Shown piece by piece: positions 33,901-39,237 of a DNA stretch of 64,000 nt. Source of the stretch: a candidate division Zixibacteria bacterium SM23_73_2 (GTDB lineage Bacteria > Zixibacteria > MSB-5A5 > SM23-73-2). The position numbers and the translations under genes are program-made. Under the pieces are notes generated by a model. The model searched no databases, was not told where the DNA came from, and worked only from the letters and a program-made list of their open reading frames with translations. How positions within the stretch are numbered: the first letter of the stretch is position 1; the number at the start of each line of letters is the position of its first letter. The stretch is taken from contig LJUW01000006.1 in NCBI GenBank assembly GCA_001304315.1, positions 2,135-66,134 of the forward strand, given 5' to 3'.

Positions 33901-34398
33901 ATGGTCTTTTATCACACGATAATAAACTCCCCGGTTGGCAAACTCTATGCTCTAAAAACTAACAGCGGTCTGAGGCTTTTAACATTTTCAAAAAAAGAAT
34001 TTGATAGCCAACTGAAAAAATTAGAAATTAAAAATGAAAAATTCAAAAAGGATAAAAAGCATTTTTCCAAACTCAAAAAAGAGCTCAAGACTTATTTCTC
34101 TGGTAAAGAAGTTAAATTCTCCGAAAGGCTTGATTTAAGTTATGGCACAGAGTTTCAGAAAAAAGTCTGGAAGCAAATGAAAAAAATTCCTTATGGACAA
34201 AAGAGGACTTACAGATGGCTGGCACAAAGGCTTGGTGATTCCAAAGGGGCAAGGGCAGTGGGGAATGCCTGCGGAGCAAATCCTTTTTCTATTATTATTC
34301 CATGTCACAGAGTAATAAGAGAGGATGGGAATTTGGGAGGTTATGCAGGAGGTGTGTGGATTAAAAAGAAATTGTTAAAATTGGAAGCACAGGTTTAA
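33901..34398 (+). CDS. ogt: Methylated-DNA--protein-cysteine methyltransferase
   Basis: GTEFQKKVW, ARAVGNA, NP..IIIPCHRVI and GGYAGG motifs. Confidence 0.93.
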   Translation: MVFYHTIINSPVGKLYALKTNSGLRLLTFSKKEFDSQLKKLEIKNEKFKKDKKHFSKLKKELKTYFSGKEVKFSERLDLSYGTEFQKKVWKQMKKIPYGQKRTYRWLAQRLGDSKGARAVGNACGANPFSIIIPCHRVIREDGNLGGYAGGVWIKKKLLKLEAQV

Positions 34399-34413
34399 AT
34401 TTTAATAAATATG

Positions 34414-34490
34414 GCAGAGCCGAAAAGGCTCCCTGGCCAGGCAGGCTGCTACGCGCATGATGATACTGTAGCTCAAACCTTCAGGTTTGA
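34414..34490. repeat. Divergent pair of GTAG-tagged hairpins
   Basis: gcagagcc...ggct...gctgctac (34414-34452) and gtagc-tcaaacct-tc-aggtttga (34468-34490). Confidence 0.55.
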
Positions 34491-34491
34491 T

Positions 34492-35484
34492 ATGCAAAAA
34501 GAGTGCCTTTATTACCAGAAAAGGGAAGATGGGAAGATGAAGTGTAATCTTTGTCCGGTGGGCTGTGTTATCGCTGAGGGTAAAATCGGGGTATGTATGG
34601 GAAGACAGAATCGGGGTGGGATTTTATATGCAATAAATTACGGAGAGGTCGTTTCCGTTGCCATAGATCCTATTGAGAAAAAGCCCTTGTACCATTTCTA
34701 TCCCGGAACCCAGATCCTGTCAACTGGACCTAATGGATGCAACTTAAAATGCAATTGCTGCCAGAACTGGTCTATCTCCCAAGAGAAATCTTATACTGAG
34801 TTTGTATCTCCGGAGAGATTGGTTGACCTTGCCCAAAAATATAACTCCGTGGGAATAGCCTACACCTATACTGAGCCTTTGATCTGGTATGAATACATAA
34901 TGGACACTGCGAAGATCGCACAAGAAAAAAATCTGAAAAATGTCCTTGTAACCAATGGGTATGTTAATGAAAAGCCTCTTTTTGAGCTTTTACCCCTTAT
35001 TGATGCTATGAACGTGGACGTTAAATCGATGGAGGATGATTTCTATCAGAAAATATGCAAAGGAAAGGTCGAGCCGGTTTTGAAAACTGTAGAGCTTTCG
35101 GTTAAGAATGATATCTGGGTAGAGATTACCAACTTAGTAATGCCTGGTTTAAATGATTCGGATGAGAAGATAAAAAAATTGGTTGACTGGGTGGCGAGCT
35201 TAAGCGACGCTATTCCTGTTCATTTCTCCCGCTATTTCCCCCAATACAAAAGCACCCTCCCCCCAACCCCGATTTCCACTTTAAAGAGAGCTTTCGATAT
35301 AGCAAAGGAGAAATTGAAATACGTCTATGTTGGAAACGCATATATCGAAGGGACCTCGGATACCATTTGCCCAAAATGCTCTAATTTGCTAGTCGAAAGA
35401 AGCGGGTATTTCACTAGGGTTTCCGGGATAAAAGAAGGGAAATGCTCCTCCTGTGAAAGGAAAGTGGATCTGGTTACAGATTAG
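34492..35484 (+). CDS. amrS: AmmeMemoRadiSam system radical SAM enzyme
   Basis: CNLCPVGC, DPIEKKPLYHFYPG, CNLKCNCCQNW (CxxxCxxC) and C-terminal CPKC...CSSC motifs; ATG 34492 matches the family N-terminus. Confidence 0.88.
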   Translation: MQKECLYYQKREDGKMKCNLCPVGCVIAEGKIGVCMGRQNRGGILYAINYGEVVSVAIDPIEKKPLYHFYPGTQILSTGPNGCNLKCNCCQNWSISQEKSYTEFVSPERLVDLAQKYNSVGIAYTYTEPLIWYEYIMDTAKIAQEKNLKNVLVTNGYVNEKPLFELLPLIDAMNVDVKSMEDDFYQKICKGKVEPVLKTVELSVKNDIWVEITNLVMPGLNDSDEKIKKLVDWVASLSDAIPVHFSRYFPQYKSTLPPTPISTLKRAFDIAKEKLKYVYVGNAYIEGTSDTICPKCSNLLVERSGYFTRVSGIKEGKCSSCERKVDLVTD

Positions 35485-35515
35485 TTATTGTGTTGTCAAT
35501 CCCCAAGTTAGAAAA

Positions 35516-35538
35516 CGCAGGCTGAAGCCTGCGCCTAC
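35516..35538 (-). repeat. GTAG-tagged REP-like hairpin (second copy of cgcaggctgaagcctgcg)
   Basis: Identical core to 12587-12604. Confidence 0.75.
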
Positions 35539-35633
35539 CAACACCCACAAAATTGTCCTACAATAACAAAAAAATAAATATTTTTCTTGACATTTATTGT
35601 GCGGTGCACGATTTTAGTTAATGGAGGAGATTT

Positions 35634-36218
35634 ATGGTTGATGATAATAAAACAAGAATAATCAAAAGATACAAAAACAGAAGATTGTATGATACCAAAG
35701 AAAAGAAGACCATCAAGATCGAGGATGTGGTCAAGTTAGTCAAAGATGATATTGATTTTAATGTTATCGACAATCAATCCCAAAAAGATATTACCATAAA
35801 AATATTATCCCAGGCTTTTTCAGACGAGCTGAAAAAATCCAAAAGATTGAAACAGACAGGAAAGATTTTACGTCAACTAATTTTAAGAGGAGGTGAGTCC
35901 ACTGTGGATTTCTTTGAAAAAACACTTTTGGCAGGTTTAGGCCTTTTTGACCTTACCAGGGAGAAGGCGGAGAAGATCGTGGATGATCTTATAAAAAGGG
36001 GAGAGGTCTCCAAGTCGGATAAGGCTAAGGCGGTAAAAGAGATCATAAAAGGGCACGAGGAGAGGATGAAAAAGCTCAAGGATAAAATCGACGAGAGGGT
36101 GGAGAAGATATCCACCAAGATCAGGATGGCTAAAAAAGATGATCTGGATGAGCTGGGTAAAAAGGTCGACCAGTTAGCCAAGGTGGTTGAGAGGTTGGAG
36201 AAAAAGCTGGGGAAGTGA
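35634..36218 (+). CDS. Fusion of a PhaR-type (PHB/PHA accumulation regulator) DNA-binding domain and a phasin-like coiled-coil domain
   Basis: N-terminal IIKRYKNRRLYDT...DITIKILSQ; C-terminal FEKTLLAGLGLFDLTREKAEKIVDDLIKRGE...KKDDLDELGKKVDQL. Confidence 0.8.
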   Translation: MVDDNKTRIIKRYKNRRLYDTKEKKTIKIEDVVKLVKDDIDFNVIDNQSQKDITIKILSQAFSDELKKSKRLKQTGKILRQLILRGGESTVDFFEKTLLAGLGLFDLTREKAEKIVDDLIKRGEVSKSDKAKAVKEIIKGHEERMKKLKDKIDERVEKISTKIRMAKKDDLDELGKKVDQLAKVVERLEKKLGK

Positions 36219-36258
36219 AGCTATTACATCTTTCTAATCTTTCGATTTTCTGAATCTG

Positions 36259-36288
36259 AAAGGCAATCCTTTTAGGATTGCCTTTTTT
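36259..36288 (+). terminator. Intrinsic terminator
   Basis: aaaggcaatcct-ttt-aggattgccttt followed by a T run. Confidence 0.85.
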
Positions 36289-36328
36289 GTCGATTCAACG
36301 GAGAGATAAACACTGTGCACTCTTGTTG

Positions 36329-36654
36329 AAAACCCACCTTGACCTCAAGGTGGGTTTTGCTTTCGCCCAGGTTGAGGGCAACCTGGGCTACTCATGAAAT
36401 ATTGCTGGGATGTTATGGCGGGATACCCATACCCCGCCAGCATCTCGGTCAAGGGTGGGGGCACCCTTGACCAACTTTCAGGGTGGACTCCCGAAGGACA
36501 GGAGGGGACCTTGTTTTTACCCCATAGAGATTGCTTCTCCCGCCAAAGGCGGGATCACAATGACATTCTGGGTTCTGTCTTTGCGAGGAATGAAGTGACG
36601 AAGCAATCTCGTTACTTGCCATATGAAGATTGCTTTGCTTCGCTCGCAACGACA
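36329..36654. repeat. Composite palindromic repeat, copy 1
   Basis: 36394-36653 aligns with 56095-56341; the flank carries cccaccttg/caaggtggg and a GTAG hairpin at 36365-36391. Confidence 0.8.
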
Positions 36655-36788
36655 TCTGATTGGACCTCCATTTTTTGGAAGGCTTTTGCCTTCCACTACA
36701 TTTTTAAGTTGCATTGACACGCTATATTTTTTTATTGACTCAAATCCAATTATTTGATAAGTTTAGCTGACCTTTAAAAAGATCTACT

Positions 36789-38471
36789 ATGAGACTTTCG
36801 CGAATAGACAGAAGATACAGGCATCTTAAAAGATACCGGGGAATTGCAAGGGTTCTGATAAAATATGGTTTCGGGCATATCCTTTCCAGAATGAGGGTTT
36901 TTGCAATCCTGAGGATGGGGAGAAAGATTGTCTACAGAGAAAGACCCAAGCTTGAGGAATTAAACTATGCCCAGAGGATAAGATTTGCATTGGAGGAGCT
37001 GGGTCCGACATTTGTGAAGTTGGGTCAGGTCCTTTCAACCCGCCCGTTTTTGATACCTCTGGAATTGGTTATCGAATTAACCAAGCTTCAGGATGAGGTC
37101 GCTCCCTTCCCTTTTGAAAAGGTAAAATATATAGTTGAACATGAGCTCAAAGCTTCGCTGGACAGGCTTTTCTACGAATTCGGCGAAAACCCCATAGCCT
37201 CAGCATCTTTATCACAAGTGCATAAGGCAAAAACCATAAAGGGGGATGAGGTGGTGGTTAAGATTCAACGTCCGGGAATCAAAAGGATCATCGATACGGA
37301 TATGGAGATTTTAAAAGATTTGGTTAACCTTCTGCTAAGATACATTCCGGAGAGCAGACAGTATGATCCTAAAGGAATGGTGGAGGAATTAGCCAAGACC
37401 TTCAGAAGGGAGATCGATTTTAAAAACGAGGGGAGAAACATCGAGATCTTTGCCTCCAATTTCAGGGATGACCAAACTGTTTTTGTTCCCAGGGTTTTCT
37501 GGGATCTGACCACCTCCAAAGTTCTCACCATGGAGTATATTCATGGGATTAAGGTCTCGAATATAGCTGAGATCGAAAGAAGAGGTCTTGACAGAAAGAT
37601 AATCGCCAAAAATGCTGGCAGGGCGGTTTTCAAGCAGATATTCATAGACGGTTTTTTCCACGCTGATCCCCATCCGGGTAATTTATTCATTATGGAAAAT
37701 AACGTGGTCGCTCCTCTGGATTTCGGGATGATGGGAAGATTGTCCGAGAGTTTAATGGATGAGCTTTCCGAGCTTATGATAAACGTGGTTACCTGGAATC
37801 CCAGGGGTATCATTAAAGTCTATCAGAAAGCAGGAGTGGTAACTGAAAAGACCAATTTAAAAGCATTGGAATCGGATCTCACCGAGTTCTTGTATCGCTA
37901 TCACAAGATACCCTTAGCCAGGATCGATATGAAATCGATCATAGACGATGCTTTTGAGCTGATCCATAAACATGATATTCAGGTTCAGTCCGAGCTTATG
38001 CTTTTCGGGAAGGCTATCGTTACCTATGAGGAGGTGGGGAAGATCCTGGATCCGGATTATGATCTGGTAACCGAGCTAATTCCTTTTGTGAAAAAGCTTT
38101 CAGGGCGAAAATACCAGCCAAAGATCATTTTGAGGGATATAGTCACCGTACTTCAGGATTTCAGAGACTTTTTGGTTCCTCTTCCATTTGACCTCCAGAG
38201 GATAATCCAGAAACTAACCCGGGGGGAGTTTAAGTTTTCCTTAGAACATATGAGGCTGGAGGAGTTCATGCTTCAGATGGAGCGTTCCTCCAACCGAATA
38301 TCTTTTTCCTTAATCATCGCAGCACTTATTGTGGGCTCATCCCTTATCATGAGGCTTGAGATAGGACCTTTTATTTTAGGTTACCCATTTTTGGGAATTA
38401 TGGGATACCTTTTTGCGGGGATTTTAGGGGTGTGGCTGGTTATCGCCATTTTGAAGTCAGGAAGAATTTAA
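36789..38471 (+). CDS. AarF/ABC1/UbiB family atypical kinase
   Basis: LGPTFVKLGQ (KxGQ), ASASLSQVH, VKIQRPG, FFHADPHPGN and LDFGMMG motifs; two C-terminal TM helices. Confidence 0.93.
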   Translation: MRLSRIDRRYRHLKRYRGIARVLIKYGFGHILSRMRVFAILRMGRKIVYRERPKLEELNYAQRIRFALEELGPTFVKLGQVLSTRPFLIPLELVIELTKLQDEVAPFPFEKVKYIVEHELKASLDRLFYEFGENPIASASLSQVHKAKTIKGDEVVVKIQRPGIKRIIDTDMEILKDLVNLLLRYIPESRQYDPKGMVEELAKTFRREIDFKNEGRNIEIFASNFRDDQTVFVPRVFWDLTTSKVLTMEYIHGIKVSNIAEIERRGLDRKIIAKNAGRAVFKQIFIDGFFHADPHPGNLFIMENNVVAPLDFGMMGRLSESLMDELSELMINVVTWNPRGIIKVYQKAGVVTEKTNLKALESDLTEFLYRYHKIPLARIDMKSIIDDAFELIHKHDIQVQSELMLFGKAIVTYEEVGKILDPDYDLVTELIPFVKKLSGRKYQPKIILRDIVTVLQDFRDFLVPLPFDLQRIIQKLTRGEFKFSLEHMRLEEFMLQMERSSNRISFSLIIAALIVGSSLIMRLEIGPFILGYPFLGIMGYLFAGILGVWLVIAILKSGRI

Positions 38472-38511
38472 AACAAAATTAAAATTAAAAAAGAAAAATG
38501 AAAAATTAGAA

Positions 38512-39237
38512 ATGAATAAAGCTGAGGTAGAAAAAAGATTGAAAGATTTTGTTAAGATAATGAGAAGAAATTATGGTCCCAATCTCACCTTTATTATTCA
38601 TCACGGGAGCTGGGCAACTGGTGAGGCAAAGCCTGATTCTGATTTAGATATTTTATCTGGATTGAAAAAGGTTGGAAATACGGAACTTTTGAAATTGAAA
38701 AAGATCTTGAGGGAAAAGGAGTTTTTAAATTTTAACGTTTTGCTATTCTCAAAAATTGATATGGAAAACTATATTCCCTATGGTTGGCATCAATTTTATT
38801 ACGGGGCAAAGCTTCTATATGGAAAAAGACCTTTGCCCAAGCCAACTAAAAAGCAGGAGCTTTTGGAAATCCAAAAGCATGCTGACGAGATAGGATTCTG
38901 GGGAAGGTATCTTTTCACTCACAGGCACCCCCGCAAAAGGGTGGTTAGAAGCATCTACTGGAGATTGAAAGAGGTTATAATATGTTTGAAAGTATGGGTG
39001 AATTTGAAAGAGAATAAATATCCACTCACAAAAAAGGAGCTTAAAAAATACCTGAGCCCAAAAGACAAAAAGCTGGTGGAGATATCAGAGAACTGGGGAG
39101 TTCACAAGCCAAAGTTTTTAAAAAATCCAGATCCTGTTCTTCTGGAGCTGGCTTTGTTTTCGCAGAGAATCTTAAGAAGAGTCAAGATGCAGGACGCAAG
39201 AGTCAAGAATAAAATAAAAATATTTAAGAAGAGGTAG
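38512..39237 (+). CDS. Nucleotidyltransferase (Pol-beta superfamily) with C-terminal helical domain
   Basis: HGSWATGEAKPDSDLDIL (GS...DxD) motif. Confidence 0.75.
   Translation: MNKAEVEKRLKDFVKIMRRNYGPNLTFIIHHGSWATGEAKPDSDLDILSGLKKVGNTELLKLKKILREKEFLNFNVLLFSKIDMENYIPYGWHQFYYGAKLLYGKRPLPKPTKKQELLEIQKHADEIGFWGRYLFTHRHPRKRVVRSIYWRLKEVIICLKVWVNLKENKYPLTKKELKKYLSPKDKKLVEISENWGVHKPKFLKNPDPVLLELALFSQRILRRVKMQDARVKNKIKIFKKR

Follow-up and report, generated by a model that had tools for sequence, protein, structure and literature searches.

The PhaR/AniA repressors of PHA-producing Proteobacteria, which combine a PHB_acc_N with a PHB_acc domain, share with the Zixibacteria gene described here both the PF07879 DNA-binding domain and an operator of the type TGC-N3-GCA (YGCRNYGCR) in the gene's own promoter; for the PhaR of S. 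meliloti, the site YGCRNYGCR has been shown by EMSA (PMC12542648). Among working systems, PhaF and PhaI of Pseudomonas putida come closest: one long protein unites a phasin with a DNA-binding part, a second, short protein is phasin-only, and both are of the PF05597 type. The phasin half of PhaF shares 38% identity with PhaI; PhaF itself tetramerises by way of a leucine zipper, and the two have been proposed to form mixed oligomers (PMC3574117). The PhaR/PhaP titration loop offers a further parallel to the pair of long and short products that we propose below. In-frame internal starts that yield N-terminally truncated proteoforms are known from the Tn5 transposase and its inhibitor, the alpha and beta subunits of B. 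subtilis aspartokinase II, ClpB, IF2 and CheA. Such starts have been mapped genome-wide (bioRxiv 10.1101/520783), they account for a two-component endolysin encoded by a single gene (PMC7098653), and they have been reviewed (PMC13515050, PMC11005335). Our literature search returned no paper on PhaR of Zixibacteria. Nor did it return a nested second start in PhaR, and to our knowledge none has been described.

The locus examined here lies in a window (the whole stretch of DNA that was analysed) of 64,000 nucleotides from a Zixibacteria genome of 2.26 Mb in 123 contigs, with a completeness of 86% and a GC content of 42.5%. Its coding features and terminator are as follows.

35634..36218, + strand: long ORF of 194 aa, a PhaR-like regulator made of a DNA-binding domain and a phasin-like coiled coil
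35658..35834, + strand: PHB_acc_N DNA-binding domain (PF07879), residues 9-67, Pfam E-value 3.8e-19
35888..35896, + strand: internal Shine-Dalgarno (SD) sequence AGGAGGTGA, core GGAGG at 35889-35893, within codons 85-88 (R-G-G-E)
35904..36218, + strand: nested short ORF of 104 aa opening at an in-frame GTG, codon 91, and comprising the phasin-like coiled coil without the DNA-binding domain
35928..36200, + strand: phasin-like domain PF05597, residues 99-189, by Pfam
36260..36288, + strand: intrinsic terminator, stem AAGGCAATCC / GGATTGCCTT followed by a T-run

An initial annotation had read this ORF as a PhaR-type domain fused in frame to a phasin-like domain and closed by a strong terminator. 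Both points hold, as PHB_acc_N and PF05597 match within one 194-aa frame, and a hairpin at 36260-36283 runs into the T-run. In Pfam, PF07879 reaches 69 bits against a cut-off of 25, and PF05597 scores 34.8 bits with the long form and 40.9 with the short form against a cut-off of 28.8; PF05233 (PHB_acc) is absent among the Pfam matches of the long ORF, the C-terminal half being matched by PF05597 instead. Among NCBIfam profiles, the PhaR equivalog TIGR01848 stays below its cut-off (63.4 bits versus 109.45), as does the phasin profile TIGR01837 (39.8 for the long and 47.8 for the short form, cut-off 94.7), and the 'phasin-related domain' NF047773 exceeds its cut-off of 35 with both (40.8 and 45). 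The 104-aa product covers positions 6-117 of the 118 in TIGR01837 and thus constitutes a complete phasin-type module. An Rfam scan of 34000-39000 returned no family. The fusion itself is nothing new: the architecture of about 190 aa is widespread, also beyond Zixibacteria, and is already named in databases. Hundreds of near-full-length relatives (185-194 aa) with both domains come from Zixibacteria MAGs, some of them under the names 'polyhydroxyalkanoate synthesis repressor PhaR' or 'PHA synthesis regulator DNA-binding domain-containing protein'.

What sets the gene apart is the signal at the junction of its two domains. An SD at 35888-35896 and an in-frame GTG at 35904, from which a 104-aa product would be read, had been pointed out beforehand, and all of these positions check out. 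Taken as a single sequence, the combination could be a product of chance: an in-frame ATG or GTG stands 4-10 nt after a GGAGG in 208 of the 1574 long ORFs (13%) of the window's genome, corresponding to an expected count of 0.08 per 194 codons, and its significance must therefore come from conservation only. SD usage is evident in this genome, with a spacing mode of 5 nt before first ATGs and 10 nt in 4 of 203 cases, and the 10-nt gap between the internal GGAGG and GTG falls at the long edge of this distribution. Most orthologues also have the 10-nt spacing, which the free-standing derivatives described below have for the most part cut to 4-8 nt; internal initiation may therefore be inefficient. 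Because the 16S gene was not found in the window's MAG, the anti-SD was examined in relatives, where 39 of 61 Zixibacteria genomes carry the tail GGATCACCTCC (the canonical anti-SD), complementary to AGGAGGTGA. The chance frequency of such motifs in single genes and the suboptimal 10-nt spacing would both suit a reading in which only the full-length protein is made, with GGAGG and ATG/GTG arising from a Gly-Gly hinge, ribosome-slowing codons, and a hydrophobic Met or Val at the start of a helix. We consider this reading unlikely, and the comparisons that follow bear on it directly.

A scan with one genome per species yielded 121 loci, of which 80 were retained, nearly all from Zixibacteria and some filed under other bin labels; 78 full-length orthologues, with identities down to about 34-35%, were aligned codon by codon. 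The initial annotation had suggested looking for its signal in orthologues, and at nucleotide level an SD followed by an in-frame ATG or GTG at codons 89-91 is conserved in 75 of these 78 (54 lineages at <80% identity). The alignment also bears on the notion of an assembly or sequencing artefact, in which adjacent phaR and phasin genes were merged by a missed stop codon: it has the SD and start at the junction in its favour and nothing further, and the fused frame is uninterrupted in 78 independent assemblies and in 131 of the 150 listed representative clusters of the wider family, leaving this explanation a negligible probability. Two ordinary genes with a missed stop before 35904 are ruled out by the fused frames of the orthologues. 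As a separate observation, one fused gene (L041, CP070796) has an in-frame stop ahead of its last helix, reflecting either real decay or an assembly error.

The constraint at the junction acts on nucleotides. Codon 86 is GGA in all 72 orthologues that have Gly here, compared with 14/78, 17/78 and 14/54 (18-26%) at control columns of conserved Gly; across the 54 lineages at <80% identity it differs in 0% of lineage pairs, and the control Gly codons differ in 66-75%. At codon 87, of which GGAGG needs the first two bases only, usage is GGT 41, GGA 28, GGC 4 and GGG 3, and a third-base T or A lengthens the pairing. Codon 85 ends in A in 64 of the 78 orthologues despite a variable residue (L, K, R, S, I, T and others). 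At codon 91, 60 of the 78 have ATG and 13 have GTG; every valine at this position is encoded by GTG (13/13), as against 321 of the 1091 other valines (29%) in the same genes. Unlike ordinary hydrophobic columns, codon 91 never encodes I, L or F in these 78 sequences, and the two orthologues with Lys there have an ATG two codons earlier. When all 194 columns were scanned for synonymous bias, codon 86 came out strongest (G of 163) and codon 85 second (G of 99), with a median of 17. A hinge in a full-length protein leaves the invariant GGA, the A-ending codon 85 and the exclusive use of GTG for valine unexplained. The third-strongest synonymous bias falls on codon 93, the second codon past the internal start (ATT in 36, with Ile in 45 orthologues), and would fit a preference for A/T-rich sequence right after a start codon. 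The internal signal is missing from three orthologues (L070, L078 and L081), and a separate short gene was not found in their genomes, so that the prediction of such compensation failed. From these nucleotide-level patterns, we judge it highly probable that the nested start with a second ribosome-binding site is real.

Predicted mRNA structure runs in the same region through a mean trough of -4.1 to -5.4 kcal/mol at codons 77-95, compared with -9 to -10 in the flanks, with less structure at the true 5' end only; the trough is a weak point, because GC content dips at the same codons. The short protein could also be real and stem from a separate, shorter transcript, produced by an internal promoter or by RNA processing, and the free-standing versions described below, by which the module can be expressed alone, agree with this. 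A promoter-like site on the + strand was, however, not found inside the ORF, and upstream of codon 85 there is, SD codons aside, no cluster of synonymous constraint that would point to a conserved internal promoter; we regard a separate transcript as very improbable. Since it would need the SD and start at the same place, it is in any case a variant of the explanation we prefer, initiation at the nested start within the mRNA of the long form.

The AlphaFold2 (AF2) model of the long form, built with 71 sequences (mean pLDDT 72), is confident for the N-terminal domain (residues 8-68, pLDDT 85-89). It places helices at 73-86 and, after a break at the Gly-Gly, at 88-101, 109-121, 127-165 and 168-191, the last of them strongly amphipathic (muH 0.62-0.71) with Leu/Val at a spacing of 3-4. 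A Foldseek search of the model against the PDB returned nothing at E <= 0.001, and a PDB sequence search with the family profile gave coiled-coil noise only. The position of the Gly-Gly at a helix break speaks for a structural hinge, as assumed if the full-length protein is the only product, and the same can be said of its conservation in distant homologues that have no start codon.

These homologues were recovered from 288 clusters at E <= 1e-10 among 1.84 billion representative proteins; among the 150 clusters listed, 131 are fused and 11 short. The distant fused members pair PHB_acc_N with a weak PF05597 match, and at least one of them comes from a Deltaproteobacteria MAG (MBI4209343.1). 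We took DNA for 74 distant fused homologues from metagenomes. They retain the Gly-Gly at the junction, as in I-Q-S-G-G-E-S-I, and encode its first Gly as GGC in 43, GGT in 9, GGG in 7 and GGA in 3, the GC-richness of this outgroup being a confounder. Position 91 is A, Q, T or S and never a start codon. As the distant homologues keep the Gly-Gly with neither GGA nor a start, the protein requires neither GGA nor Met/Val, and the outgroup has I, F, L or A near position 91, leaving the missing I, L and F at this codon in Zixibacteria without explanation if only the full-length protein is made. At the same time, since the Gly-Gly is conserved as protein in the wider family, the motif partly pre-exists for protein reasons. 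The fused architecture and the Gly-Gly hinge are thus old, and the SD and start appear to be an addition made in Zixibacteria.

Genomes in which the C-terminal module stands alone provide an independent view of the nested start. The module is present in 121 of 151 Zixibacteria genomes, and one PHB_acc_N gene in 105 of 151; the short gene alone (about 105 aa; 96-155 codons from stop to stop) occurs in about 16 of the 151, spread over four GTDB families, and PHB_acc_N is absent genome-wide in the three short-gene-only genomes that were searched. The intact short genes that we read begin with ATG (GTG in one) at a position aligned to codon 91, or to codon 90 in one family (f2), a close relative of the window's gene with 65% identity and the same upstream radical-SAM neighbour. 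Each of them has its own SD, 4-8 nt upstream with one exception at 10 nt, and the short representative clusters start at the same place as the short genes. The initial annotation's expectation that free phasin-only proteins begin at the nested start is thereby borne out, with starts at that codon or at the one preceding it. A tree built from the C-terminal module has the short forms branching from within the fused ones and requires at least 5 changes (8 by parsimony). The N-terminal half was therefore lost repeatedly and the remaining gene always starts here, as expected if this start was already in use; with the full-length protein as sole product, it is unexplained why independently truncated genes should all start at codon 91 or 90. 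In one single-contig genome (G098), the short gene (L110) carries a frameshift right after its ATG, through decay or an assembly error.

The promoter of the long form carries a second set of conserved signals, given here for the window.

35587..35592, + strand: -35 hexamer TTGACA, with TTGAC conserved at this place in 77 orthologue promoters
35599..35609, + strand: PhaR-type operator GTGCGGTGCAC, palindrome GTGC-GGT-GCAC with the core TGCGGTGCA at 35600-35608, in the 17-nt spacer
35610..35615, + strand: degenerate -10-like GATTTT, placed by its position relative to the conserved promoter consensus and weaker than in relatives
35623..35627, + strand: GGAGG, the SD that serves the long form, at a distance of 6 nt from the ATG, as is typical for the genome

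In 77 of the 78 orthologues, TGC-R-N-Y-GCA lies between the -35 and -10 elements, within the consensus tTTTtt..TtGAC.ttTaTTGTGCrnyGCACTATAtT, and this operator matches the S. meliloti PhaR motif YGCRNYGCR. The conservation of the operator and the known behaviour of PhaR make it very likely that the long form represses its own gene. The autoregulatory long isoform suggested initially thus fits by inference, with a PhaR operator conserved in the gene's own promoter. When we searched the window's genome for the operator, the gene's own promoter held the only promoter-embedded copy, and the regulon may therefore be the gene itself. The UbiB gene downstream has no operator ahead of it. A wider regulon was considered and rejected, the other matches lying in coding frames at about the number expected by chance. 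As for the -10 element, TATATT or TATAAT takes the place of the window's GATTTT in more than 70 orthologues, L003 with its 81% identity among them. The GATTTT hexamer, together with a longer, SD-bearing leader, makes the window's promoter and translation signals differ from the family norm.

Across the family, the main start is frequently leaderless (5-12 nt after the -10; 23 of 77 orthologues), and an SD-like 4-mer of any kind precedes it in only 16 of 77. Much of the family accordingly has no good SD on the mRNA other than the internal one, as would suit an abundant short form. The three orthologues without an internal SD (L070, L078 and L081) do have one at the main start. The proposal of an abundant short and a minor long isoform is thus plausible for the family and does not carry over to the window's own gene, whose main start has a good SD. 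In a sister clade (L006, L010, L011, L012, L019 and L005), the leaders between operator promoter and start codon, 50-115 nt ahead of the start, contain tandem heptamer repeats whose unit varies by species, such as ACAGTAA about 10x, CCTTGAA about 7x and AGTCAAT about 6x.

According to the initial annotation, the short form would be abundant and coat inclusions of PHA or neutral lipid, and the long form would tether such inclusions to DNA or sense them. In support of this, PF05597/TIGR01837 is the family of Pseudomonas PhaF and PhaI, the last helix is strongly amphipathic, and the window, like three distant loci, has an ABC1/UbiB kinase gene downstream. The genomic setting argues otherwise. The PHA synthase PhaC (TIGR01836, E <= 1e-5) was found in 0 of 151 Zixibacteria genomes, with a positive result in the Caulobacter control, and PhaC_N (PF07167) is absent from the window's own genome. 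A WS/DGAT search likewise gave 0 of 151, in this case without a positive control, the control genomes having also given no match, so that absence is not established. The neighbourhoods of the orthologue loci contain no PHA or lipid storage genes; the genes found there are housekeeping (smpB, a nitrilase-family gene, rlmN, ligA) or CheY-like receivers. The coat role was therefore not upheld, and we rate it as improbable. The UbiB/ABC1 gene (36789-38471), which in the window follows the PhaR-like gene directly, was also dismissed as a functional link, being adjacent in just 4 of 79 loci; the other three (L068, L056 and L064) belong to a distant clade at 48-50% identity, by chance or through a recurrent association.

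Two further observations concern the surroundings. The most conserved neighbour in Zixibacteria is a receiver-only CheY-like gene of about 130 aa, present in 53 of 79 loci about 490 nt upstream, in the same orientation, and ending about 86 nt before the PhaR-like gene; the window does not have it. Between the terminator and the UbiB gene, an ORF-free stretch of about 500 nt (36290-36790) carries hairpin modules, among them ACCCACCTTGA..TCAAGGTGGGT and GCCCAGGTTG-AGGG-CAACCTGGGC, with copies of 73-97% identity spread over dozens of this genome's contigs; they resemble dispersed repeats of the REP/MITE type, and Rfam gave no match in this interval.

Taking these lines together, we propose that the gene encodes the form that a widespread PhaR-like regulator takes in Zixibacteria, with PHB_acc_N at its N-terminus and a phasin-like amphipathic coiled coil at its C-terminus. 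The 194-aa long form would bind TGC-N3-GCA between its own -35 and -10 elements and thereby repress its own transcription. On the same mRNA, ribosomes would also initiate at the GTG at 35904, guided by the SD at 35888-35896, and produce the 104-aa coiled-coil module. The C-terminal module being common to both, the short form would either enter mixed oligomers with the long form or compete with it for the module's ligand, which is presumably not PHA since the phylum lacks a PHA synthase. Either way, the short form would tune the amount of long form on the operator, and a pair of regulator and phasin, as in PhaR/PhaP or PhaF/PhaI, would be collapsed into one ORF. From the sequence comparisons, this model as a whole, an autorepressing long form with a nested short form that tunes operator occupancy, seems to us probable. 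We are more tentative about its extension to a phylum-wide one-gene circuit, possible at best, in which a leaderless or weakly led repressor and an SD-led partner or antagonist share a coiled-coil sensor module, and shifts between leaderless and SD-led translation, or a non-PHA ligand, reset the promoter.

If both products are made, a deeply conserved bacterial transcription factor and its truncated partner would be encoded in one ORF. Modules of the PhaR and phasin types are retained in about 80% (121/151) of the sampled genomes of a phylum free of PHA synthase; the annotation 'PHA synthesis repressor' is therefore misleading here, and what the modules sense or bind must be something different. 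That the DNA-binding half was lost repeatedly at the internal start, or one codon before it, suggests that a gene can be pre-adapted to fission by a nested start. The one-gene circuit, if true, would point to a general role of the PhaR/phasin module outside PHA storage.

Compared with known systems, in-frame internal starts, PhaR autoregulation and the fused architecture are already known. The PHB_acc_N plus phasin-like proteins of about 190 aa from other phyla (e.g., MBI4209343.1) have the same length, architecture and Gly-Gly junction as the Zixibacteria gene; unlike it, they have no GGAGG and no ATG or GTG at this junction. With respect to PhaR/AniA, the C-terminal half in Zixibacteria is PF05597 rather than PHB_acc, the TIGR01848 score is sub-cut-off, and the phylum lacks a PHA synthase. 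PhaF and PhaI are encoded by two genes, and PhaF binds DNA through a histone-H1-like C-terminal tail, in the opposite domain order and with an unrelated fold, whereas in Zixibacteria one ORF is predicted to supply both proteins and a sequence-specific PhaR domain would bind DNA. The likeness to known internal-start genes lies in an SD and in-frame start at a domain boundary and in a short product that keeps the oligomerisation or binding module without the N-terminal functional domain; the Zixibacteria case differs in being drawn from comparison alone, in its phylum-wide extent, and in its autoregulatory operator and often leaderless main start. What would be new against this background is a phylum-wide nested start in a gene of the PhaR family, backed by synonymous sites and an outgroup, the combination of this start with a promoter that bears an operator and is often leaderless, the repeated fission of the gene at this start, and a PHA-free phylum as the setting.
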